A DNA stretch of 13,200 nt from Bacterioplanes sp. Its GTDB lineage: Bacteria > Pseudomonadota > Gammaproteobacteria > Pseudomonadales > Oceanobacteraceae. The notes under the pieces were generated by a model, which saw nothing but the letters and a program-made list of their open reading frames with translations, made no database searches and was not told where the DNA came from. The position numbers were made by a program, and so were the translations under genes. The stretch covers positions 1 to 13,200 of the forward strand of contig JACUUC010000046.1 in assembly GCA_014859445.1 (NCBI GenBank). The letters are read 5' to 3'. This document shows, piece by piece, positions 2,807 to 11,844 of the stretch (positions within the stretch are counted from its first letter, which is position 1; each line of letters opens with the position of its first letter).

Positions 2807-3028
2807 ATGAGCGCACCGTTAACCAAAACCGATGACATACATCACATCCAGACAAAAATTGAGCGCATCGAAAGCGACATTCAACGCATTACCAACAAAC
2901 TCAACAACGATGGCTTTATCGCCAGAGTGCCAGCGGCCATGATTGAAAATGAACAAAAGAAAATGGCTCAGTTTGAGCGGGAAAAACGCGAACTCGAAAT
3001 ACAAATGCGTTTAATCAGTAACGCTTAA
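2807..3028 (+). CDS. Small stand-alone protein resembling the C-terminal coiled-coil domain of valyl-tRNA synthetase
   Basis: ATG 2807 is preceded by GGAGGA (2792-2797, 9-nt spacer). The 73-aa product contains ..IERIESDIQRITNKLNNDGFIARVPAAMIENEQKKMAQFEREKRELEIQ... This follows the remembered ValRS C-terminal pattern (KL-N-x-GF-x-x-[KR]-AP-x-x-V/I-x-x-E-x-x-K, then a heptad coiled coil). No catalytic ValRS sequence lies upstream. Confidence 0.6.
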   Translation: MSAPLTKTDDIHHIQTKIERIESDIQRITNKLNNDGFIARVPAAMIENEQKKMAQFEREKRELEIQMRLISNA

Positions 3029-3085: not shown

Positions 3086-3979
3086 CTACTCCAAAAAGCG
3101 CTGCCGGATAGCCCCGCTGACTGCGGTCAGTGGCACGATGATGCTTAGCTCATAGGCCAAGCCAAAATCCTCATCCAAGGCGGCATCGTCGAACCAGATG
3201 CCGTTGCCCACACTTAAATACGACTGCAAAATGGGCGGCAGACGGCAGCCATAGAGCTTGAGCAGTTGCTGCAACTGCCGGATACGCCCGTCTGGGCTCA
3301 ACTCTGCCCAGCCACGGCACTCCAGCGTATGTGCTACCGCGTAATTCAGGCCGGTTTTTGCCATCATCATCGGCTGCGTCGGGGTATACAGCTGCTGGCA
3401 AAACTGCACCATGCAGGCAATGGCTTCTTGACCCAGACTTTGATAGAGCGAAACATTGCCAAAAAAGTACTGCAGCTGTGGGTGGATACGGGCTAAAGCT
3501 CCCAGCCCGGCCCATAACGCAAAGAAACCCAGGACACGGGCCTTAGCACTGGTATTGACCACCGAACGGCCCAGCTCAATGCCATAGGGCAACACCTGGC
3601 TGCAAAAAGCCTTGCTGTAATCAAACAGCTGGCTGGTACGTAACAAGGCATGGCCATGCTGTGCTGCTTGCCATCCTAACTGGTAGCGGTAAATAGCCAC
3701 CAACTCCAACCTAGCCGGATCCCACACCAGCAACTGGTAATAGGCATGTTCACCATAATCCAGTGCGTCCAGATCACGCGCCAGATTACGGCCGGCACCG
3801 GCACTGCGAAACATCAATTCGCGTAAACGGCCAATCTCCAGCATAGTCACTGGGATCCTATCTGCCTGAGCGCTGAATACCAGCAAACCACGAATGCTGG
3901 CAATGGGTTCAAGCTGTGCCAGCTCCTGTGCAATCAACTTAGTCGGCTCGGCGGCTGCAACTGGGCTTACCATCGGCAT
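3086..3979 (-). CDS. GNAT-family N-acyltransferase, OlsB/GlsB-like ('putative hemolysin' COG3176 type)
   Basis: ATG 3979 is preceded by AGGAGGA at 5 nt, inside the 3' end of the upstream gene (41-nt overlap). Motifs: IGRLRELMFRSAGAG..DLDALD..HAYYQLLVWD...LVAIYRY, and later ..IELGRSVV...LWAGLGAL...YFFGNVSLY. These are typical of N-acyl amino acid synthases that pair with a PlsC-like O-acyltransferase. Confidence 0.75.
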   Translation of the reverse strand: MPMVSPVAAAEPTKLIAQELAQLEPIASIRGLLVFSAQADRIPVTMLEIGRLRELMFRSAGAGRNLARDLDALDYGEHAYYQLLVWDPARLELVAIYRYQLGWQAAQHGHALLRTSQLFDYSKAFCSQVLPYGIELGRSVVNTSAKARVLGFFALWAGLGALARIHPQLQYFFGNVSLYQSLGQEAIACMVQFCQQLYTPTQPMMMAKTGLNYAVAHTLECRGWAELSPDGRIRQLQQLLKLYGCRLPPILQSYLSVGNGIWFDDAALDEDFGLAYELSIIVPLTAVSGAIRQRFLE

Positions 3980-5549
3980 CGGGTTCCTCCTGATAAATAG
4001 TGGGTAGTTGATAGCAACGGCGTTTCAACCAGGCGATACGCTGCCGATCGGTTTCGGCCAGAGCGTCCAGTTCGACGACATGCATCGGAATATCAACATA
4101 CAGTCGAGGTGTACGGTTGGCTGGCTTTAGCATTTCCCGTACCAGCAACAGCATTTCCAGATTGGCCTGAATACCCAGACTGGTTCGTAGCCAGGCCAAG
4201 GTATAGAACCAAGTCGAATTCTGACTTTGCAGATGCAACACGGTCAGACTGCGCTGCTGGCGCCTGGCCAATGTCACCGTCAACTTGGACCAATTGCCAT
4301 CGTCCAACTGACCTTTGTTGCTCTTTCTGGCCGTGCGACCAGCCGGAAAAATCAACAGAGGGGCGTCGCTGGCAAAAGCAGCCTGAACCATTGGCAGCGC
4401 ATCTTTAGGCTTGGCAAATACCGGGATCGACACAATGCGCCCAGCCAGCTGCTGCACTTCGGTCAGTACTTCGTTGGCCAGTACCTGCAAATTTGGATAA
4501 CGCTTTTGCAGTACACTGATCAGCAACAAGCCATCAATGCCACCGGTCGGATGGTTGCAGACAAACACCGGCCGGTCTGCAGCTGCCGGCCAGCGGCAGG
4601 CGATGACGTCCGGAGTTAACTGCAAATGCTGCAGGGCTACATCACAAAAGCGCTCAACCGGCAGCCGGTTGAGCCGCTCCAACCTCTGATTTAACGCCTT
4701 TTCCGCCAACAGCCAGCGCAGCAAATCCCACTGCCAGCCTTTTAGTTGGCTGGCTAGCGTTGGGTTATAGCGGCTAAGCAGGGCCTGCACATCCAACCGG
4801 CTGCTAAAATAGTCTTCGGATACTACAGGCTGTTTCAGCGGCAGTTCCAGGCAGTGGCTGGCATCCACCTGATGGGTGGACGGATGCCCATCCCAATACT
4901 GCATACTAATCTTGCCTGCTTCGATAGTCAGTTGTGTGATACTGACGGTCTGTACCTGGCTACGCTGCATGGCAATGCCGCTAAAGGCGCTGAATGGTCC
5001 GGGCCGGCGATGCAGTTGCTGCTGGGTTTGCAGTGACGGTGAGCGGGCCATAGCCCGCTGCCAATGCCAGGCTCTGAGCCTCGGGATCACCCTAGGTAAA
5101 ACACTGGAACTGGATAACGGCGAGTTTGGTGCCAGCTGCTGACGAAGCTGGCTGCCATCCCAATGCCACAGCAGCGGCTCCTGTTGTCCAACAAAGAGCA
5201 GCAAGCGAAAAGGGGCATAGCAGCGTAACTGCTCTGGTTGCAATGAAGCGTCCAGCATTTGCCAGTCCGAGCTATGCGCCAGTGCCCGTAGAAGCAGACC
5301 ACGACTGCGGCGGATAGCGGCATCCGGCTGATACGCGGCAGCATAATCGTTGAGCAGACAAAACACCCGGCCTTGCTCATTGGCCGCTACCCAGCTGCCA
5401 CCACCGTCTGGATCGATGGGGATGACGGCGTCCACACCGTTCTGACTAAAGCGCTGGGGCGCATGCGCCCGGGCGCGGATTTTTCGCTCATCCCGGTTGA
5501 ACAGGATATGCAGCTGTCCTTGCTGGTACCACCAGCTTAGGGTGCACAT
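3939..5549 (-). CDS. Fusion protein: N-terminal NRDE (TANGO2-like) domain plus C-terminal lysophospholipid/aminolipid O-acyltransferase (GlsA/OlsA-like)
   Basis: Continuous 536-aa ORF. Residues 1 to about 235 carry MC(2)TLSWW...ILFNRDER...DPDGGGSWVA...RSRGLL...YAPFRLLLF, the NRDE family signature with the N-terminal Cys. Residues about 245-520 carry ..WDLLRWLLAEKALNQRL.., CNHPTGGIDGLLL (acyltransferase His/Asp block) and LLIFPAGRTARK (FPxG(T/R) block). The start overlaps the DinB gene by 13 nt. Confidence 0.75.
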   Translation of the reverse strand: MCTLSWWYQQGQLHILFNRDERKIRARAHAPQRFSQNGVDAVIPIDPDGGGSWVAANEQGRVFCLLNDYAAAYQPDAAIRRSRGLLLRALAHSSDWQMLDASLQPEQLRCYAPFRLLLFVGQQEPLLWHWDGSQLRQQLAPNSPLSSSSVLPRVIPRLRAWHWQRAMARSPSLQTQQQLHRRPGPFSAFSGIAMQRSQVQTVSITQLTIEAGKISMQYWDGHPSTHQVDASHCLELPLKQPVVSEDYFSSRLDVQALLSRYNPTLASQLKGWQWDLLRWLLAEKALNQRLERLNRLPVERFCDVALQHLQLTPDVIACRWPAAADRPVFVCNHPTGGIDGLLLISVLQKRYPNLQVLANEVLTEVQQLAGRIVSIPVFAKPKDALPMVQAAFASDAPLLIFPAGRTARKSNKGQLDDGNWSKLTVTLARRQQRSLTVLHLQSQNSTWFYTLAWLRTSLGIQANLEMLLLVREMLKPANRTPRLYVDIPMHVVELDALAETDRQRIAWLKRRCYQLPTIYQEEPDADGKPSCSRRAD

Positions 5550-6028
5550 CGTTTGTGATACTCTTGGGTCGAGCTGTGCACACCGGCATCCTCTGGCCAG
5601 GGGTAGCCCCAGGGATCCAGCATGGCATGGATCAACGCCAGATGATGCACTGCATGGCTGGCAACAAAATCCAGCTCACGCTGCAGGCTGGTGTAGGTGG
5701 TGCCTTCGGCAAATTGATAGCTCAGCTGGGTATCCAGCTCATCGGTTTCCAAGCACTTCAGCCAGCTTTGCAAACGCTCTATCCAATGCAACGCTTTTTG
5801 CGGATCGCTTTGCACGCCTTCATCTCGCAACCGCAGCCGGTAGTCCAGCTGCTGACTGTTCGATGCCAGCCACAGCTGCTGGTAGTGATCCAACACATGA
5901 CGAATATGTTTGCCGACTGAAGGCTCACCGGGCCAGTCTTTGACCTGCCGGTAATGTTCAGGCTGCACCTGCCGTAGAATAAGACGGATAAAGTCCAACT
6001 GGTGCAGGTTTTGTTCAATCACCGTCAT
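5537..6028 (-). CDS. DinB-fold (DinB_2/YfiT-like) putative metal-dependent protein
   Basis: 163 aa. The N-terminal helix motif VGKHIRHVLDHYQQL and the C-terminal FVASHAVHHLALIHAML fit the His-triad pattern of the DinB superfamily. It overlaps the upstream gene by 14 nt and the downstream gene by 13 nt. Confidence 0.7.
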   Translation of the reverse strand: MTVIEQNLHQLDFIRLILRQVQPEHYRQVKDWPGEPSVGKHIRHVLDHYQQLWLASNSQQLDYRLRLRDEGVQSDPQKALHWIERLQSWLKCLETDELDTQLSYQFAEGTTYTSLQRELDFVASHAVHHLALIHAMLDPWGYPWPEDAGVHSSTQEYHKRCAP

Positions 6029-6263
6029 GCGATTCTGTCCTTTGAATGGTTAAATCGTTTAGCCGCTGTTTGGCGGCACTGTAACTGGCGACCGAGAAGG
6101 GCACCAAGTAATTCAGTAGGATCAGGCCAAAGCGCCAGGGTGCTTCACCGGCAATAGCTTCCCATTGATTGATTAGGTTCAGCAAAGTCCCCACCACAAG
6201 TGCCACCTTAATGGCATTGCTGAACACCTCGGGATGGCGTAATTGTTGCAAAAAGTCTTTCAT
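6015..6263 (-). CDS. Small two-TM membrane protein, NrtS-like (putative nitrate/nitrite transporter family)
   Basis: 82 aa. IKVALVVGTLLNLINQ...LILLNYLVPFSVASYSA resembles the remembered NrtS family signature. There is an ATGA start/stop overlap with the HD-GYP gene. The functional assignment is tentative. Confidence 0.5.
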   Translation of the reverse strand: MKDFLQQLRHPEVFSNAIKVALVVGTLLNLINQWEAIAGEAPWRFGLILLNYLVPFSVASYSAAKQRLNDLTIQRTESHDGD

Positions 6264-7183
6264 CCGCGAGCAAACCTGACCAGTTGTTCCAGCGGGATAT
6301 GCGACACCGACTCCTCAATCAACCGCTTAATTAATAGTTTATCTGCTTTAGGTTGCAGTTGCTGGGCCGAAACCTTGCGACCGGTTGGCTTGACCGTCCA
6401 TTGGTCGTGCTCAGCACACAACTCCATCTCGCTGTGACAGACACCACAAGCCAACAGATCACCCGGTTTGTCCTCGCTGTGTTGCAGTACCGTCGGACCA
6501 CAGTGCGGACAGGTGTGCAAGGGAATGCCATAATCACTGTGCCCCATAATGGCATCCACTTCACCTCGTTCAGCCAACGCCAGCAAATGGTTGCACCAGA
6601 ACTGGTTAAACTGTCGGCCGGACTCCTCACGCAGAATACCAAGCACTTTTTCCAATGGCATAGGTTTGCGGTAGGAGCGTAAACTGGTCATGGCATCAAA
6701 GGCATCACATACCCCGATGATGGCCGCATCGGTTGGGATCATGCTGGCAGTCAGGCCATGCGGATAGCCACGACCATCCGGCCGCTCGTGGTGCAACTCG
6801 ACCGCAGCGGCGACCAGATGCCCTAGCGGATGCCCTGCCAGCATGCGGCCACCAGCCTCCGGGTGCGTTTGGATCACAGCAAACTCACTGTCATTCAACT
6901 TGCCGGTCTTATTTAAAATTGCATCTGGGATGGCGACTTTGCCCAGATCATGCAAAAAACCGCCGAGCGTCACCCGGGCAATATCGGCCTCCGGCAAACC
7001 ACCGGCTCTGGACAATAAATTGGCATAACGCGACACCCGCCACAAATGTCCGCCGGTGTAGGGATCTTTGGCTTCCACAAACCAGGCCATCACCATCAGA
7101 CTGGCCAACAGATCTTTGCTTAACTGACCGGCATCCGCCGGTAACGCTTTTTCTGCTTGAAACTGTTGAAACCATCTGAGCAT
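6260..7183 (-). CDS. HD-GYP domain c-di-GMP phosphodiesterase with C-terminal CxxC...CxxC zinc-ribbon extension
   Basis: ATG 7183 is preceded by a GGGGG SD at 5 nt. Motifs: GGFLHDLGKVAIPDAILNKTGKL (HD), HHERPDGRGYPHGL (GYP), VCDAFDAMTSLRSYR. The C-terminal extension carries HTC225PHC228...AC246GVC249HSEMELC256. Confidence 0.85.
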   Translation of the reverse strand: MLRWFQQFQAEKALPADAGQLSKDLLASLMVMAWFVEAKDPYTGGHLWRVSRYANLLSRAGGLPEADIARVTLGGFLHDLGKVAIPDAILNKTGKLNDSEFAVIQTHPEAGGRMLAGHPLGHLVAAAVELHHERPDGRGYPHGLTASMIPTDAAIIGVCDAFDAMTSLRSYRKPMPLEKVLGILREESGRQFNQFWCNHLLALAERGEVDAIMGHSDYGIPLHTCPHCGPTVLQHSEDKPGDLLACGVCHSEMELCAEHDQWTVKPTGRKVSAQQLQPKADKLLIKRLIEESVSHIPLEQLVRFARG

Positions 7184-7210
7184 GATAGCCCCCTGTTAAG
7201 TTAACCCTGC

Positions 7211-7663
7211 TTATCTTTTTGCGTGAATCTTCAAAAGCTTAGCAAAAGACTCCCGCTTGACTGCATCGGCCAGATCATCTTTGCAAAAATACAGCACTGT
7301 ACCAGCCTGTCCGGGCTGGGCTGAACCAATCACCTGGCCAGCGGCAGCAATGGCTGCCGCTGCGTGATGCTGCTGCATCAGATGCAAAATAGTCTTTTGC
7401 ACCCGCTCCAATGGCAGCAAACTGGCAAACACCACCGGCAGGCTTGGCTTAAGCTGACGTATTGCCAACAGCATCTCTTCGGCCGACTGCGGCAGCGGCG
7501 ACGACAAAGCCAAAGAAATAACGGCAACATCGGCGTTGGCCAGTTCGTCATTCAGCGCATCCAGCTGTGACAGACGGTTAAAACTAAAACCCTGCTGCTG
7601 CAGAAAAGGAGCCATCTCACTAACAATAAAAGGATGGGGCCTGGCAAGTAAAATATGTGGCAT
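7211..7663 (-). CDS. Hypothetical protein (150 aa), first gene of the operon; possibly a receiver-like alpha/beta fold lacking the acidic pocket
   Basis: ATG 7661-7663 has TAGGAAAAA upstream, and the gene ends 27 nt before the HD-GYP gene. I recognised no family signature. The alternating hydrophobic strand/helix pattern (HILLARPHPFIV.., DVAVISLAL.., LPVVFASLL..) loosely resembles a CheY-like fold, with Ser where the phospho-Asp would be. Confidence 0.5.
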   Translation of the reverse strand: MPHILLARPHPFIVSEMAPFLQQQGFSFNRLSQLDALNDELANADVAVISLALSSPLPQSAEEMLLAIRQLKPSLPVVFASLLPLERVQKTILHLMQQHHAAAAIAAAGQVIGSAQPGQAGTVLYFCKDDLADAVKRESFAKLLKIHAKR

Positions 7664-7757
7664 GATTTTTCCTAAGGTTGAATTGTAGTTGCATTGTGCT
7701 GCAAACTGCTTAGGCTAAAGGATTCATTAATCTTAGGAAGTTCTGCTGCGTACCACA
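7664..7757. promoter_or_regulatory. Divergent promoter region between the six-gene operon and the AraC-family gene
   Basis: 94 bp between divergent ATGs. It contains a TACAAT -10-like hexamer on the minus strand (7687-7682) and the inverted repeat TTGCA-N6-TGCAA (7689-7704). There are three CTTAGG/CCTAAG copies (7671-7676 inverted, 7709-7714, 7732-7737). Confidence 0.4.
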
Positions 7758-7793
7758 ATGACCAAAACACCGGCCTTATCTACCGAAACACCA
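7753..7793 (+). promoter_or_regulatory. Direct-repeat pair of the ACCAAAACACCG motif overlapping the AraC start codon (candidate operator/activator site)
   Basis: CCACAATGACCAAAACACCG (7753-7772) matches 11898-11917 at 18/20 positions. A degenerate second copy, ACCGAAACACCA, lies at 7782-7793, exactly 21 bp downstream. This is the same spacing as copies 1 and 2 in the bufA/trx intergenic region. Confidence 0.55.
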
Positions 7794-8678
7794 GAAGCCT
7801 TAGAACAGTTATTAGCACAATTGGCTTTTGGCTCGGAGCTGCATTTTGAGTCTGGCTTTTGTGACCACTGGAACCTGCTCACCACCAAATCCAGCAAAGC
7901 AGCCCTTCATGTGGTGACGCAGGGCCAACTTTGGATGGCGATTCCTGGTCGGCTTCAGGAACAAGTGCTACTGGAAGCCGGCGATGCTATTTTTTTCAGC
8001 CACAGTTTCCGGCATTGGCTAAGCGACGAGCCAGTGGATGAACACACCAGCGAAGTCGACTTTGCCAACTTCTGTGTGCCCAATCATGTTGAACGTGGTC
8101 TGGTCTGCTACGACATTGCGGTCGAATCCCCTCTCACCGCCAATCTGTTTCAGGTGATGCCGGACTACATTCACCTGCCTGCCAACCAGCAGTCCGGACG
8201 GCTCAGTCCACTGGTGCAACTAATCCAGCAAGAAGCCAAATCCCGTCAGCCTGGTTATCAGGCGGCTATCAGTCGCTTGAGCGATGTGGTGGTGTTGCAC
8301 TTGTTGCGTCAGGTGCTCAGTGACGACAGCATGCAACAAGGCCTGCTGGCAGCACTAAAAGATCCGGCGCTACGCCGGGTGCTACTGGCCATTATGGATG
8401 AACCGGGCGCTAACTGGACGGTGGAAAGCATGGCCGCTCTGGCTTTTTTGTCCAAAAGCGCCTTTGCCGAGCGCTGCCATAAAGTGATGGCTATGACTGC
8501 AAAAGCCTTGTTGGATAAGCTTAGGCTACAACGCTGCCGTTATCTGCTTATCCATACAGAGCTGAGTCTAGAACTCATTGCCGAACAAATTGGCTATCAA
8601 TCAGCAACGGCATTTATCCGCTTTTTTAAGCAACAAGAAAGCTTATCGCCCGGCGAATTCAGAGCATTGCATAACTAA
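7758..8678 (+). CDS. AraC/XylS-family transcriptional regulator with N-terminal cupin (AraC-binding-like) domain
   Basis: 306 aa. The N-terminal part (ALHVVTQGQLWMAIPG...LLEAGDAIFFSHSFRHWLSD) is cupin-like. The C-terminal dual HTH includes ..WTVESMAALAFLSKSAFAERCHKVM.. and ..LIAEQIGYQSATAFIRFFKQQESLSPGEFR. It is divergent from the 7663 operon. Confidence 0.85.
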   Translation: MTKTPALSTETPEALEQLLAQLAFGSELHFESGFCDHWNLLTTKSSKAALHVVTQGQLWMAIPGRLQEQVLLEAGDAIFFSHSFRHWLSDEPVDEHTSEVDFANFCVPNHVERGLVCYDIAVESPLTANLFQVMPDYIHLPANQQSGRLSPLVQLIQQEAKSRQPGYQAAISRLSDVVVLHLLRQVLSDDSMQQGLLAALKDPALRRVLLAIMDEPGANWTVESMAALAFLSKSAFAERCHKVMAMTAKALLDKLRLQRCRYLLIHTELSLELIAEQIGYQSATAFIRFFKQQESLSPGEFRALHN

Positions 8679-9241
8679 TCGCTGCCAGCTCCTCCTGTAG
8701 CGCGCGCTTCAGACAGTGAAAAGGATTTAACACGCTCAAACGGCAAGTGATCTCCTTCATCGGTACCATAATACGCCATACTAATACGTCCATTGCGGTC
8801 GATAAGAAAATCTGCTGGCATAGTGGTCATGCGGCCTTTGATGCCCAGCGGCAGATAACCGCGCATCATAGCTCTAAGCAGAGTCGGCATGCGTAATAGC
8901 ATGCCCTTCACCACGCCCAGCAGTGAATACTCAATACCGTATTCCCAGTAGAATTGATTGCTCTCATCCGCCAGCACCGCAAAAGGCGCTTTATGACCGC
9001 TCGCATGATGCTGCAGATTATCCAGCGGCGAGTCAAATACCGCGACAATAGTGAAGTCGTCGGCAAATTCATTGAAGCGGGACACTAATTCATGCATGCG
9101 CAGATTGCAAAACGGACAACTGGCAAAGCGAAAGAAAGACAGCATAAAAGGTCGCCCCTCCAGACTTCTCGTGTCAAACAGCTGGCCATCAAGTGCTGGC
9201 AACATGACGTGCGTCAGCTTATCTCCGGGTTGACGTTTCAT
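8675..9241 (-). CDS. Peroxiredoxin-like / AhpC-TSA (redoxin) family protein, CPFC motif, no signal peptide
   Basis: ATG 9241 is preceded by AAGGAG at 7 nt. It has a thioredoxin-fold signature: RPFMLSFFRFASCPFCNLRMHEL...IVAVFDS...FAVLADE...PADFLIDRNG. It is the last gene of the DUF2282 operon. Its stop codon overlaps the stop codon of the convergent AraC gene. Confidence 0.75.
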   Translation of the reverse strand: MKRQPGDKLTHVMLPALDGQLFDTRSLEGRPFMLSFFRFASCPFCNLRMHELVSRFNEFADDFTIVAVFDSPLDNLQHHASGHKAPFAVLADESNQFYWEYGIEYSLLGVVKGMLLRMPTLLRAMMRGYLPLGIKGRMTTMPADFLIDRNGRISMAYYGTDEGDHLPFERVKSFSLSEARATGGAGSD

Positions 9242-9286: not shown

Positions 9287-9823
9287 TTACGACCGTTTTT
9301 CAAGCCCCAGCCAGCGATCCAGCGAAAACAATCCTGGGCCGCGCGCGAGCAACATCAATAATAATGCCGCCCACCAGGCCGCAGGATTCCAAAAATGTGT
9401 CCAATCCGGATAAACGGCAAATTGAATAAAAAGGGTCATGCCCAGTAAACCCAATGCAGCAAAACGGCTAAATAGTCCCAGGATTAATAGCAATGGCAGC
9501 AGCACTTCCACCACACCTGCAGTTATTGCCATCGTTTCAGCCAGCCATTGGCCGAAAGCGCCCTCAGAGTATTCCAGCGTATCGGCATCGCACAATAACA
9601 AAGCACCGGGCCGAACAGGGTCCGGACAGAAAAATTCGTACATAAAAAGTTCGTATTTATTAACGTCAAACTGTAAAAAGCCATCCCATTTTGACAGGCC
9701 AGATTGTAAGAAAACCCGGGCCACCAACAAGCGCAACGCCAGCAAAGCAAGTGGCTCCAGCCAGCGCTGTAAAAACTGAGCTAATTGGTAGTAACGTGTC
9801 TGAATAGAAGTAACGAAAGTCAT
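9287..9823 (-). CDS. DoxX-family membrane protein (BufD/HvfX/GigT-like component of DUF692 RiPP clusters)
   Basis: ATG 9823 is preceded by AAGGAG at 7 nt. 178 aa with multiple TM helices. LALRLLVARVFLQSGLSKW is a DoxX signature. It sits immediately downstream of the DUF2063 gene (20-nt gap). Confidence 0.8.
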   Translation of the reverse strand: MTFVTSIQTRYYQLAQFLQRWLEPLALLALRLLVARVFLQSGLSKWDGFLQFDVNKYELFMYEFFCPDPVRPGALLLCDADTLEYSEGAFGQWLAETMAITAGVVEVLLPLLLILGLFSRFAALGLLGMTLFIQFAVYPDWTHFWNPAAWWAALLLMLLARGPGLFSLDRWLGLEKRS

Positions 9824-9843
9824 CAGTGGACTCCTTTAAAGCG

Positions 9844-10620
9844 TTAACGTATGCACAGCAGACCATGCTGTAACAACCCGGCAAAGCTGCCGCTGACATC
9901 GAAATGCTCATCCACCCTGAGAGCTGCAGATACCGCATCATGCAGGCAACAAGACTGAGTATTTAAAGCTTGCAGAAAGTGCCATTCTGCGGCAGACAAT
10001 ACCCGATACTGCAATGTATGATCGGCTTGTCGCCATAGCGCCCGACGGTTATGCTCTAAAGCAACCGTCGCCTGCTGCTGATAGCTGGGATCATCACGTT
10101 GCTGTACCCACAATGTCCAAACATCAAAATGCGTTTCAAGCAGTTCAACGCTTGAACACAATCCTAGTTTGAGCTTTTCAATATTGGTTCCCGCGTTGGC
10201 CAAATGCGAGATATCCTCCGCCGAAACTGCTTTTTGATCCTCGGCCAGCAAGCAATTCAGCCAACAACGTTCTAGCCTAGCCAGATCGCTCAACCACGGG
10301 CACTGATGTCGGGGCAACTGCGTTTGCAACCAATCAGGAAATTGCTGACCATACCAGGCCAGCACGGCATGCTCAGGCCGATGAATAAAAACATAATCTC
10401 TGGCCAATTGGCGGAACTGCTCGTCTGCCAACACCGAGCCACTGACAGGAAAGTTGTCAGCTAAAGCCTGCACTGATGCCTTCATGCTGCTGTTGCGATA
10501 CACTTGCAATCGTCGCCAATCTTCAGGTTTAGCTTGTAACCAGTGAGCCAGCGTGGTCTCAGCTTCACCTTGCAAATATGCAATAAACTGCTGATAAAAA
10601 TGAGGCTTAGCCTGCTGCAT
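9844..10620 (-). CDS. DUF2063-family protein (BufC/HvfC-type partner of the MNIO enzyme)
   Basis: 258 aa. The start overlaps the DUF692 gene by 14 nt. The N-terminal QQFIAYL...RLQVYRNS...L.DNFP region is typical of DUF2063. Its position directly 3' of DUF692 is the canonical pairing. Confidence 0.75.
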   Translation of the reverse strand: MQQAKPHFYQQFIAYLQGEAETTLAHWLQAKPEDWRRLQVYRNSSMKASVQALADNFPVSGSVLADEQFRQLARDYVFIHRPEHAVLAWYGQQFPDWLQTQLPRHQCPWLSDLARLERCWLNCLLAEDQKAVSAEDISHLANAGTNIEKLKLGLCSSVELLETHFDVWTLWVQQRDDPSYQQQATVALEHNRRALWRQADHTLQYRVLSAAEWHFLQALNTQSCCLHDAVSAALRVDEHFDVSGSFAGLLQHGLLCIR

Positions 10621-11479
10621 CTGCTATCTCCAGATAAGGTCGCAACACGGCATGAAGCCGCTCTCGCTCATTCAGTAAATCATCCAGAGCAGGAATACGA
10701 TCATCCCACTCCAATAACACGGGCCTCGGACCAAATCGCTGTAAGGCATAATCCAGTAAATTCAGGATGTCTTCTTGTGGTGCGTGATCGTGGCTATCAA
10801 TCAACAAACGATTGCCTTCAACCGGATCGGCTGAAAAACCTGCCACATGCAGCTCACCGACTAAATGCGCAGGGATTTGATCCAAATATTGCTTAGCATC
10901 CACACCACAATTGGTTTGGCTCAGGTATAAATTGGTTATGTCCAGCAACAAACCACAGCCGGTCCGTTGTGTTAACTCCACCATAAAATCAGCTTCATGC
11001 ATTTCATGCTGAAGCCCAACATAGTGGGTGGGGTTCTCGAGCAAAATAGCTCTGCCAATCGCTTCCTGATACTGATGTACTCCGTCCGCTAATTGCTGCA
11101 AGGCTGCCCGAGTTCGTGGAAAAGGCAATAAATCTGCAAAATATGCGTGCTGCACTCCTGACCACACCGCATGCTCAGAAATCAACGTTGGCTGAATGTT
11201 ATCTACCAGTGCTTTAACCCAAGACAGGTACTGAGTGCTGAGGGGTTCCGGCCCACCAAGAGAAGCACCAACACCATGTAGGCTAAGCGGAAATCGTTCC
11301 GCCATCGCCTGCAGAGCTGCCAGCCTAATTCCGCCGATGCCACAATAGTTTTCCGTATGCACTTCATACCAGATCCCTTTTGAAGCAACATCCAGTACCT
11401 CTGGATAGTGCTGAAGCTTAAGGCTTATACCAGTACTAAGCACGGATCCTGGCAGGCTGTTTGCGTTAAAATCTGCCAT
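10607..11479 (-). CDS. DUF692 / MbnB-like multinuclear non-heme iron oxidase (MNIO) RiPP maturase
   Basis: 290 aa. Motifs: GISLKLQHY...WYEVHTENY...PLSLHGVGASLGG...ISEHAVW...DLLPFPRT...AILLENPTHY...GCGLLLDITNLY...GELHVAGF...LIDSHDH...PVLLEWDD. This is the TIM-barrel DUF692 signature. Its start codon shares one nucleotide with the precursor stop codon (TGATG). Confidence 0.9.
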   Translation of the reverse strand: MADFNANSLPGSVLSTGISLKLQHYPEVLDVASKGIWYEVHTENYCGIGGIRLAALQAMAERFPLSLHGVGASLGGPEPLSTQYLSWVKALVDNIQPTLISEHAVWSGVQHAYFADLLPFPRTRAALQQLADGVHQYQEAIGRAILLENPTHYVGLQHEMHEADFMVELTQRTGCGLLLDITNLYLSQTNCGVDAKQYLDQIPAHLVGELHVAGFSADPVEGNRLLIDSHDHAPQEDILNLLDYALQRFGPRPVLLEWDDRIPALDDLLNERERLHAVLRPYLEIADAAG

Positions 11480-11844
11480 CAGGAGTTGTTACGATCCAGT
11501 TCAGATTTCGATGCCTGACCGTGTGGGGTGATGACATACTCGCAAACCCCTCTTGGAGTGAAAGTCCAAGCGTTGCCTTGAAAATCAATAGTTGATGAAC
11601 CTTCACAGCTAGTGCCAGCTCCGGCCCGGCAATCGTTCTGCCCCGCCAGGGCAATGCCATAGCATTTGTCACGGCGGCCCCGTACTCGCTCGCCGGCCAT
11701 CCATGTTTCAAAGTTTTGTTGCACCGCCTCAGGCGCATTTTCTGCCAGGCTAAGTTGAGCATTCGGTCCAGCCTGTGCCACACCCACAGCACTAGCCATA
11801 GCTACACCTGCCAGCAATAATTTGGTTAAGTTAGGTTGTTTCAT
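11479..11844 (-). CDS. DUF2282 / BufA1-type secreted Cys-containing RiPP precursor (bufferin-like metallophore)
   Basis: ATG 11844 is preceded by AGGAGA at about 7 nt. It has a Sec signal peptide ([25 protein letters not shown]|G). The core [43 protein letters not shown] carries four Cys (residues 61, 72, 80, 101; codons at 11662-11664, 11629-11631, 11605-11607, 11542-11544). This matches the DUF2282 pattern. Confidence 0.85.

Follow-up and report, generated by a model that had tools for sequence, protein, structure and literature searches.

In the GlsB/GlsA glycine-lipid (and flavolipin) pathway of Bacteroidota, two separate, adjacent genes encode a GNAT of the Acetyltransf_5 family and an acyltransferase of the Acyltransf_2 family, and the chemistry leads to an N-(3-acyloxyacyl) amino acid (PMC12971839). 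The OlsF ornithine/lysine lipid synthase carries the same two catalytic domains in one polypeptide, and both steps are established for OlsB/OlsA, OlsF and GlsB/GlsA (PMC12971839). Here we describe an operon-like cluster of six open reading frames (ORFs), all on the minus strand at 7663-3086, in a 13,200-nucleotide stretch of contig JACUUC010000046.1 from Bacterioplanes sp.; this whole stretch is called the window below. The genes are numbered 1 to 6 in their reading direction. The last two encode an acyltransferase pair of the type just described, and the O-acyltransferase is fused to an N-terminal TANGO2/NRDE domain and preceded by a gene for a DinB-like protein. The first three genes form a unit of the cyclic di-GMP (c-di-GMP) phosphodiesterase type. 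While the type of catalytic pair is already known, what is new is the TANGO2 fusion, its DinB-like partner, the range of hosts and the c-di-GMP module joined to the core. We regard the TANGO2 domain and its DinB-like partner as the most informative features of the locus.

In humans, deficiency of TANGO2 causes severe disease. The function of the protein is disputed, as it has been described as a heme chaperone (PMC10470608), an acyl-CoA binder (PMC11867700) and an N-terminal nucleophile (Ntn) hydrolase with a catalytic cysteine (Cys-Ntn; PMC13044924). Purified human TANGO2 binds acyl-CoA in a manner that requires the NRDE motif, and its loss leads to the accumulation of lysophospholipids (PMC11867700). 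Our explanation of the locus, which we consider fairly probable, is that two modules lie behind an RclR-like regulator and that the core module makes an acyloxyacyl amino-acid lipid with acyl handling by the TANGO2 domain.

The aminolipid-type core and its TANGO2/NRDE domain

The N-terminal part of the gene 5 protein matches Pfam TANGO2 (PF05742) with 36.8 bits (cut-off 22.6) over residues 1-142, and the domain extends to about residue 245. An initial annotation of this DNA had called the gene PlsC-like, and both the TANGO2/NRDE domain and its partnership with the DinB-like protein had been overlooked. A sequence profile gave only a marginal TANGO2 match among PDB sequences (E 0.06), and a comparison of folds was therefore needed. 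The AlphaFold2 model of the protein is confident in both domains, with a predicted local distance difference test score (pLDDT) of 87.7 and a predicted template modeling score of 0.87, and the N-domain is predicted to adopt the four-layer alpha-beta-beta-alpha Ntn fold. In Foldseek searches of the PDB, the best match was human TANGO2 (9bwa/8sv7; E 4e-9, probability 1.0); the next ranks went to acyl-CoA:isopenicillin N acyltransferase, CV2077, penicillin V acylase and a large number of bile salt hydrolases. An exact look-up of the gene 5 protein sequence returned no record.

The active site proposed for human TANGO2 consists of Cys2, Asn25/Arg26/Asp27 of the NRDE motif, Asn75, Asn157 and Lys166 (PMC13044924). 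Based on a profile alignment with 8sv7 and on the motifs, the equivalents in gene 5 are Cys2, N18/R19/D20, N67, a Ser of the SSSS stretch and R159. An Arg in place of Lys166 is also what classical Cys-Ntn hydrolases have. The gene 5 protein begins with MCTLSW and carries N18-R19-D20-E21, N67, S82-R83-G84 and R159. Across 16 aligned fusion proteins, the start is MCT(L/V)SW, R19-D20-E21 and Y111 are nearly invariant, and N67, S82-R83-G84 and R159 are invariant; Cys2 is present in every full-length family member aligned. The Met-Cys start and the NRDE, LxN and SRG motifs are common to gene 5, human TANGO2 and HtpA of Shewanella. In contrast to these two proteins, the gene 5 domain shares a polypeptide with a lipid O-acyltransferase, its gene is translationally coupled to that of a DinB-like protein, and its sequence identity with human TANGO2 is only about 15%. 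No TANGO2-acyltransferase fusion and no link between TANGO2 and aminolipids was found in the literature searched. Our search returned no paper combining TANGO2 with ornithine lipid, OlsF, aminolipid or N-acyl amino acid, none of the TANGO2 papers returned on bacteria, acyl-CoA and Shewanella/heme reports such a fusion, and a 2026 review of acyloxyacyl aminolipids makes no mention of TANGO2, NRDE, DinB or c-di-GMP.

The C-terminal domain of gene 5 matches Acyltransf_2 with 104.7 bits (gathering threshold 27) over residues 257-515. Among NCBIfam models, it scores best against GlsA (NF053697; 160 bits over residues 252-515, short of the cut-off of 260), and it matches the N-domain of OlsF with 111.4 bits, the cut-off for full OlsF being 620. 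In the alignment, the motifs N332-H333-P334...D339-G340 (NHPxGxxDG) and F401-P402-A403-G404-x-T406 (FPAGxT) are invariant or nearly so; N332-H333-P334, G336, G340, F401, A403-G404 and T406 are invariant among the 16 fusion proteins. Foldseek also matched this domain to the squash glycerol-3-phosphate acyltransferase 1k30. Gene 6 matches Acetyltransf_5 (33 bits), its best NCBIfam model is GlsB (NF053696; 169.5 bits, cut-off 300 not reached), and the C-domain of OlsF gives 151.9 bits. The two-step acyltransferase pair proposed in the initial annotation is thus borne out as an O-/N-acyltransferase pair of the GlsA/GlsB or OlsF type. Since the NCBIfam cut-offs are missed, this pair is predicted to be a relative rather than an orthologue of the known aminolipid synthases, and its assignment as GlsBA or OlsF proper was rejected. 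The two genes are adjacent and co-oriented with a 41-nt overlap, and overlaps of 4-44 nt occur in nine related loci.

As in the GlsB/GlsA pathway, the GNAT and the acyltransferase are encoded by two separate, adjacent genes. However, the O-acyltransferase described here bears the TANGO2/NRDE domain, a DinB-like gene is the third member of the set, and the hosts are Gammaproteobacteria, Balneolota and Spirochaetota of alkaline/saline habitats rather than Bacteroidota. Compared with OlsF, whose halves match the window proteins (111 and 152 bits), the two catalytic domains are split over two polypeptides and the acyltransferase is fused to TANGO2, not to the GNAT. OlsF-like genes themselves adjoin DinB-like/NRDE pairs in other loci.

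Gene 4 matches DinB_2 with 31.9 bits (gathering cut-off 24.8). It has homologues in 10 of the 10 loci aligned, with H41, R43, H44, H125, H128 and H129 invariant; the five His residues form a putative metal-binding set, and we predict that it is a metalloprotein and the conserved partner of the NRDE domain. Genes 4 and 5 overlap by 13 nt (5549-5537; ATGTGCACCCTAA). This stretch is dual-coded, as it specifies both the end of the DinB-like protein (CAP*) and the start of the NRDE domain (MCTL). Because of this dual coding, and because the DinB-like C-terminus CAP* is kept from Alkalimonas to Salinispirillum, the pairing of the two proteins appears to be old. The fusion protein has a conserved tail of its own, SCSRR, which falls in the 41-nt overlap with the start of the GNAT gene. 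Conservation of both tails may reflect the constraint of the overlaps rather than protein function.

The same partnership was seen with NRDE proteins that are not fused. A HMMER search of the full library with residues 1-245 as the query found 3554 representatives at E <= 0.001. Among the best 150 of these 3554, about 18 are fusions of 520-560 aa and most others are stand-alone proteins of about 240-260 aa. In nearly all stand-alone proteins, the match begins at residue 1, and their alignment shows invariant Cys2, RDE, N67, RG and R158. A metagenome scan with eight stand-alone NRDE sequences gave 80 loci, the best from soda-lake samples, which were checked by tblastn with the window proteins and divergent orthologues and de-duplicated at 90% identity. 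Upstream sequence was sufficient in 60 clusters, and in 35 of these NRDE is immediately preceded by a DinB-like gene on the same strand, at gaps of -10 to +47 nt. Of the 25 clusters that extend for 2.5 kb or more downstream, 7 have an Acyltransf_2-type gene there. By our estimate, chance would place a single-copy gene within a 12-kb flank in roughly 0.3% of cases. In loci L141 and L160/L161, a stand-alone NRDE gene is directly upstream of a gene for a 601-aa OlsF-like acyltransferase-GNAT protein, which matches OlsF from one end to the other (267 bits). In L134 and L156, the DinB-like gene, the NRDE gene and a gene for a VTT-domain/ATP-grasp fusion are followed by a convergent OlsF-like gene (345-371 bits). 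NRDE is thus linked with aminolipid synthases in three arrangements: as a fusion with the O-acyltransferase, next to an acyltransferase-GNAT protein, and convergent with one. The VTT/ATP-grasp proteins (L134 6693-8309 and L156 6462-8252; 538-596 aa) join a DedA/VMP1-like VTT membrane domain to an ATP-grasp domain, and they may be head-group-extending ligases coupled to a lipid scramblase-type domain. YceI-like genes were also seen near the core or NRDE in L086 and L141.

We propose that the GNAT would form an N-(3-hydroxyacyl) amino acid and that the acyltransferase domain would then esterify a second fatty acid onto its 3-hydroxyl. The TANGO2 domain and its DinB-like partner most likely capture an acyl-thioester donor and present or deliver it, either as an acyl-Cys2 intermediate or through acyl-CoA binding. 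This role is proposed by analogy with the acyl-CoA binding of TANGO2 and the acyl-enzyme chemistry of isopenicillin N acyltransferase. Alternatively, the TANGO2 domain could edit or exchange the N-acyl amide in the manner of a bile salt hydrolase/transferase. The product is most likely an acyloxyacyl amino-acid lipid, judging from the family assignments of the pair. Glycine or another small amino acid is weakly favored as the head group because the GlsB model scores best.

A different view is that the core is catabolic or remodels lipids, or that it makes a soluble or signaling N-acyl amino acid, with the TANGO2 domain acting as a Cys-Ntn amidase or transamidase on the head group. The structural neighbors of the N-domain are indeed N-acyl amidases and acyl-CoA:amine N-acyltransferases, and the catalytic Cys2, Asp20 and Arg159 are conserved. 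Furthermore, the known Ntn enzymes all act on amide bonds, with bile salt hydrolase also conjugating amines (PMC13044924), and products of GlsB such as commendamide are signaling lyso-lipids (PMC12971839). However, the fusion to an O-acyltransferase and the strict pairing with an N-acyltransferase best fit synthesis of a diacylated form, and the core has no conserved gene for transport or secretion. We therefore consider an amidase role of this kind unlikely and prefer the synthesis of an acyloxyacyl lipid.

Two separable modules and the c-di-GMP genes

Loci around homologues of the fusion protein were collected, and a tblastn table was prepared over all of them. A profile scan of genome contigs with acyltransferase-motif patterns gave listed matches that were mainly GlsA of Bacteroidota; two loci from it, L001 and L002, were informative. 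The closest fusion proteins are those of Alkalimonas amylolytica (92% identity) and A. delamerensis (85%). The six-gene order is found with the divergent regulator in A. amylolytica (L081), Arsukibacterium ikkense (L082) and the metagenome contig L097, at 69-97% protein identity, and locus-tag numbering indicates that Alishewanella longhuensis probably has it as well. The junctions in these relatives are nearly those of the window, although in some of them the second junction measures 1 nt and the last one 44 nt. The gene unit is thus not confined to this genome, a check that the initial annotation had called for, and the recurrence of the same order with nearly the same junctions suggests that the arrangement is more than chance.

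Other genomes have only parts of the cluster. The core alone, consisting of the DinB-like, fusion and GNAT genes, occurs in Alishewanella tabrizica (L083), Idiomarina (L084), Salinispirillum (L085), a metagenome-assembled genome (MAG) of Cyclonatronaceae in the Balneolota (L086) and two metagenome contigs (L087 and L088). ORF listing and tblastn show the same core, again without the first three genes, in a Natronospirillum MAG (L002). Junctions between the core genes are overlaps of 4-44 nt or gaps of no more than 18 nt across these relatives. L089 has all three core genes, but its GNAT gene lies 1.5 kb upstream of the DinB-like gene. In the soda-lake MAG of Spirochaetaceae (L001), the DinB-like and fusion genes are present and the contig stops before any GNAT gene could appear. 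Wherever the available sequence is long enough, the fusion gene is followed by a GNAT gene, except in L096 and L089. The trio of genes 1-3 with its HD-GYP gene is absent from the cluster in L083-L089, the Natronospirillum MAG and the Spirochaetaceae MAG. Conversely, in Aliidiomarina (L090) the trio occurs by itself, and an orthologue of the regulator (48% identity) is encoded two genes from it. L091 has a pseudo-receiver gene followed by NrtS, without HD-GYP or core, among thioredoxin, DsbD and copper genes.

Because the core occurs without the trio and the trio without the core, the cluster is a composite of two separable modules, A (genes 1-3) and B (genes 4-6), and the earlier proposal that the six genes make up one system is not supported. 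Module B is conserved over three phyla, mostly in soda-lake organisms. The fusion protein was found in Alkalimonas, Arsukibacterium, Alishewanella, Idiomarina, Aliidiomarina, Salinispirillum, Natronospirillum, Cyclonatronaceae and the Spirochaetaceae MAG B1Sed10, and the best metagenome matches bear soda-lake sample names (SL_*KL). We take these hosts to be largely alkaliphilic or haloalkaliphilic and the SL_*KL samples to be from the Kulunda soda lakes; the link with alkaline habitats is an informed reading of host and sample names. The Cyclonatronaceae locus also has FGE-sulfatase and Methyltransf_33 genes (L086 447-2556; EgtB/EgtD-like, ergothioneine-type) and a thioredoxin gene within 6 kb of the core.

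Module A recalls the RpfG-type phosphodiesterases, in which a receiver is joined to an HD-GYP domain, as it also combines a receiver-fold protein with an HD-GYP protein that has intact motifs. It differs in that the receiver is a separate polypeptide lacking the phospho-acceptor Asp pocket, in that the HD-GYP protein has a Cys-rich tail, and in that the unit includes a two-helix membrane protein of the NrtS family. Gene 1 has no Pfam match. Its AlphaFold2 model (pLDDT 93.7) gave a Foldseek list whose top 50 entries are all receiver domains, one of them in a receiver-fusion construct, with template modeling scores of up to 0.73 on the target; they include 3hv2, the receiver of an HD-domain protein. 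The gene 1 family has invariant LLARPHPF (after strand 1) and ISLALSS (strand 3) motifs, and its alignment has no conserved Asp at either the acidic-pocket (CheY DD) or the phospho-acceptor (CheY D57) site. A CheY-like fold without conserved Asp at either site leads us to predict that gene 1 is a pseudo-receiver. The family is small, and a homologue search and the collected loci show that it adjoins NrtS with or without HD-GYP.

The HD-GYP call made for gene 2 in the initial annotation is correct. The protein matches HD_5 with 111.4 bits and HD with 63.9 bits, and its translation has the catalytic HD and HHExxDGxGYP motifs intact (FLHDLGK and HHERPDGRGYP), followed by a CxxC...CxxC tail at the C-terminus. 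It is 54% identical to the copy in the stand-alone trio of Aliidiomarina. Some HD-GYP proteins prefer cyclic GMP-AMP (cGAMP). Gene 3 is a predicted member of the NrtS family, with 28.4 bits against NCBIfam NF038050 (cut-off 25). Its homologues carry the NCBI name NrtS, and the 120 listed of 182 are all short stand-alone NrtS proteins.

A second connection with c-di-GMP was found in Salinispirillum marinum. A GGDEF-EAL gene lies 21 nt downstream of the GNAT gene on the same strand (L085 10582-12393; 603-aa product), and the first approximately 60 residues of its product, a two-helix membrane domain, show 45% identity with gene 3 and exceed the cut-off of the NrtS model (30.6 bits). This fusion turned up only by tblastn on the collected loci and not among the listed homologues of gene 3. 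Together, the HD-GYP/NrtS gene pair and the NrtS-GGDEF-EAL fusion suggest that NrtS-like domains serve HD-GYP and GGDEF-EAL enzymes as membrane input modules or anchors. In addition, no more than a few kb from the core, L083 and L087 contain genes for a GGDEF protein and a dCache-GAF-HD_5 protein. No c-di-GMP riboswitch or other RNA was found in the window at Rfam gathering thresholds, and Pfam showed no c-di-GMP-binding or receptor domain in the core or in the other window proteins. The coupling of c-di-GMP to lipid synthesis proposed in the initial annotation fares unevenly: it gains an independent second link from Salinispirillum, while the trio on which it was based is lineage-specific and missing elsewhere.

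Where all six genes occur together, module A separates module B from the promoter region next to the regulator. We propose that module A is a c-di-GMP phosphodiesterase unit that would have been inserted between promoter and core in the Alkalimonas/Arsukibacterium/Alishewanella lineage. With this position, lowering of c-di-GMP and lipid synthesis would be co-induced there. It is plausible that any functional connection between c-di-GMP and the lipid is limited to certain lineages and is not a defining property of the system.

Two alternatives bear on this point. The six genes could be one dedicated system in which c-di-GMP hydrolysis controls aminolipid synthesis or is controlled by it; for instance, the HD-GYP enzyme might be gated by the NrtS-like membrane protein acting as a lipid sensor. 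The overlapping junctions throughout, including the 14-nt overlap that joins the modules, are consistent with such a system, as are the six-gene order kept in A. amylolytica, Arsukibacterium and L097, the independent NrtS-GGDEF-EAL gene right after the GNAT gene in Salinispirillum and the further c-di-GMP genes in L083 and L087. Nevertheless, most lineages have the core without the trio, Aliidiomarina has the trio without the core, L091 has a pseudo-receiver/NrtS pair without either HD-GYP or core, and the core and window gave neither a c-di-GMP-binding domain nor a riboswitch. We regard a single dedicated system as improbable.

The opposite alternative is that the modules are functionally unrelated neighbors and that the six-gene order is merely inherited from a recent common ancestor of close genera. 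The six-gene form is in fact confined to the close relatives Alkalimonas, Arsukibacterium and some Alishewanella, and each module works elsewhere on its own. However, the 14-nt overlap of genes 3 and 4 is kept at 69-94% protein identity, the distant Salinispirillum has a different c-di-GMP enzyme with the same NrtS-like domain attached to the core, and the RclR-like regulator goes with either module. This explanation is also doubtful in our opinion, and we continue with two separable modules behind a shared regulator.

Regulator, transcription unit and neighboring genes

The features of the cluster are collected in Table 1. The initial annotation had listed six same-strand ORFs, a 27-nt gap, overlaps of 4, 14, 13 and 41 nt and an AGGAGGA Shine-Dalgarno sequence, all of which the sequence confirms; it left unsaid that the genes are on the minus strand. 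Its family calls hold as well (HD_5, 111 bits; DinB_2, 31.9; Acyltransf_2, 104.7; Acetyltransf_5, 33). It had further concluded that the overlaps imply stoichiometric co-expression, and this goes too far, as overlaps point to translational coupling only.

Table 1. Features of the six-gene cluster and its flanks (window coordinates)
Feature	Positions	Strand	Description or basis
Gene 1	7663-7211	-	150 aa, predicted pseudo-receiver
Gene 2	7183-6260	-	307 aa, predicted HD-GYP phosphodiesterase
Gene 3	6263-6015	-	82 aa, predicted NrtS-family small membrane protein
Gene 4	6028-5537	-	163 aa, DinB-like protein
Gene 5	5549-3939	-	536 aa, TANGO2/NRDE + acyltransferase fusion
Gene 5, residues 1-245	4815-5549	-	TANGO2/NRDE Cys-Ntn domain
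Gene 5, residues 246-536	3939-4814	-	Linker + GlsA/OlsF-N-type O-acyltransferase domain
Gene 6	3979-3086	-	297 aa, GlsB/OlsF-C-type GNAT N-acyltransferase
Divergent AraC-family regulator (Cupin_6 + HTH_18), RclR-like	7758-8678	+	Pfam
Regulator/operon intergenic region, 94 nt	7664-7757	.	Sequence
AGGAGGA Shine-Dalgarno sequence of gene 6, within gene 5	3991-3985	-	Sequence
Terminator-like hairpin past gene 6	3024-3007	-	Consensus scan

The gap between genes 1 and 2 is at 7210-7184, and the remaining junctions are the ATGA overlap of genes 2 and 3 (6263-6260), the overlap of genes 3 and 4 (6028-6015) and that of genes 5 and 6 (3979-3939); the ATG of gene 6 sits 5 nt past its Shine-Dalgarno sequence. 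A consensus scan of the minus strand found no promoter-like site inside the unit. A perfect 10-bp hairpin lies in the linker region of the fusion gene (4674-4652, minus strand; GCTCAACCGG CTG CCGGTTGAGC) and is followed by GCTTTTG, a weak T tail. It was rejected as a terminator: it encodes LNRLPVE, for which the Arsukibacterium protein has LNRLPAD, and it is probably a chance occurrence.

The transcription unit most likely ends at the hairpin past gene 6, because a convergent ORF with a Pfam match is found there. This 73-aa ORF (2807-3028, plus strand) matches Val_tRNA-synt_C, the coiled-coil tRNA-binding arm of valyl-tRNA synthetase, with 45.7 bits, and its end is overlapped by the hairpin. 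A minus-strand ORF at 2625-2855 that overlaps it has no family match. The region of the small convergent ORF is AT-rich (GC 0.44), unlike the downstream context in A. amylolytica. Further downstream on the strand of the cluster, 132-2597 encodes an 821-aa FadE-type acyl-CoA dehydrogenase, with the convergent small ORF and 490 nt of AT-rich DNA lying between it and the operon. Because it is not syntenic in relatives, it was left out of the unit.

The regulator that diverges from the cluster matches Cupin_6 (113 bits) and HTH_18 (63.8 bits), and it is divergent from the cluster in L081-L084 as well. In E. coli, RclR controls the rclABC reactive-chlorine response, and the Cupin_6 + AraC architecture is common to both regulators. 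RclR is also the best NCBIfam model for the window protein; nevertheless, the score of 95.8 bits against a cut-off of 400 leads us to conclude that the protein is no orthologue of RclR. Its identity with the E. coli protein is 28%, and its targets are unrelated to rclABC. The equivalent of RclR Cys89 is invariant and that of Cys86 is present in all aligned proteins except that of L090 (C117 and C106 in the window). RclR Cys21, in contrast, aligns to a Ser in this regulator family, with a Cys three residues off, and the assignment as RclR was rejected on the score and on the unmatched Cys21.

The intergenic region contains CCTAAG direct repeats at 7737-7732 and 7714-7709 and a TACAAT hexamer resembling a -10 element; no consensus sigma-70 promoter reached the scan threshold in it. 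In the alignment, its regulator-proximal part is conserved in the six-gene genomes and partly in the core-only Alishewanella. An operator role is suggested for this region, as is control by the same regulator of whichever genes follow.

The likeness to the RclR system extends to the neighborhood, which is rich in thioredoxin, DsbD, peroxiredoxin-like and copper-RiPP (ribosomally synthesized and post-translationally modified peptide) genes. The gene at 8675-9241 (minus strand) encodes a 188-aa, SelL-related redox protein of the AhpC/TSA fold and has a 4-nt convergent overlap with the stop codon of the regulator gene. Thirteen related loci were compared and none has a counterpart of it, not even that of A. 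amylolytica, which is otherwise syntenic. At 9287-11844 (minus strand), between the regulator and a thioredoxin + DsbD_TM pair, lies a bufferin-type copper RiPP operon with a DUF2282/BufA1 precursor (121 aa), an MbnB/TglH/ChrH enzyme (284 bits), DUF2063/HvfC and DoxX. Alishewanella and Idiomarina lack this operon, and there the thioredoxin-DsbD genes come straight after the regulator. The type of regulator and these neighbors (the thioredoxin + DsbD_TM pair, the peroxiredoxin-like gene and the bufferin-type operon) suggest that the inducing condition is envelope redox, copper or alkaline stress.

The same neighborhood could be taken to mean that NRDE is a heme-binding or heme-trafficking domain like HtpA of Shewanella, which binds heme and promotes cytochrome c maturation (PMC10470608), so that the fusion would reflect heme or redox regulation and not acyl chemistry; we think this very unlikely, for although Y111 is nearly invariant and a thioredoxin + CcdA/DsbD_TM pair of the cytochrome c maturation type lies beside the regulator in L083 and L084 and in the same neighborhood here, heme binding was found to be nonspecific in a crystal study of human TANGO2 (PMC13044924), the recurrent NRDE partners in three architectures are acyltransferases rather than heme enzymes, and the thioredoxin/DsbD pair is also explained by the bufferin-type operon and the redox-type regulator.

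Weight of the evidence and meaning for TANGO2

Several observations weigh against our explanation of the locus. Genes for c-di-GMP turnover are numerous in Gammaproteobacteria, and part of their association with the core could for this reason be chance. An internal promoter may be present in genes 2-3. Both acyltransferases score below the NCBIfam equivalog cut-offs of GlsA, GlsB and OlsF. The partnership with the DinB-like protein is not universal, since 25 of the 60 NRDE loci have no detectable DinB-like gene upstream. This is also the case for the NRDE-acyltransferase fusions of L093-L096 from soda-lake sediment, whose N-domain is about 46% identical to P0072, and L096 has no GNAT gene within 1.7 kb downstream of the fusion. 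The oxyanion residue Asn157 of human TANGO2 is apparently a Ser in the fusion family. Lastly, lysophospholipid acyltransferase activity was not seen with purified human TANGO2 (PMC11867700), and for HtpA, the one bacterial homologue that has been studied, binding and trafficking of heme was reported (PMC10470608). The order and junctions of the genes, the identities of the domains, their conservation, the modularity of the cluster and the fold and motifs of the TANGO2 domain are shown directly by the data, whereas we infer the lipid product, the roles of the TANGO2 and DinB-like proteins, the stimulus and any causal link between c-di-GMP and the lipid.

Gene fusions and conserved neighborhoods are among the few unbiased clues to the function of TANGO2. 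Here the fold is fused to a lyso-lipid O-acyltransferase and its stand-alone copies adjoin OlsF-like synthases, which points to a role of TANGO2-type proteins in lipid acylation or acyl-lipid chemistry. As a tentative extension, which may well prove wrong, bacterial TANGO2/NRDE proteins and their DinB-like partners could be dedicated components of acyloxyacyl aminolipid metabolism, and the fusion would then show the ancestral task of the TANGO2 fold, namely to act as a Cys-Ntn enzyme and pass an acyl group from a thioester or N-acyl amide to a lyso-lipid acyltransferase. If true, this would provide a mechanistic reason for the accumulation of lysophospholipids when human TANGO2 is lost. It would also define a new, possibly alkaline-adaptive class of aminolipids that is wired to c-di-GMP turnover in some lineages.

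In conclusion, OlsBA/GlsBA and OlsF are joined by a third gene architecture, one that has a new, DinB-like partner and is centered on organisms of soda lakes and other alkaline habitats. The locus also offers a tractable bacterial system in which the effects of Cys2 and NRDE mutants can be read by lipidomics.

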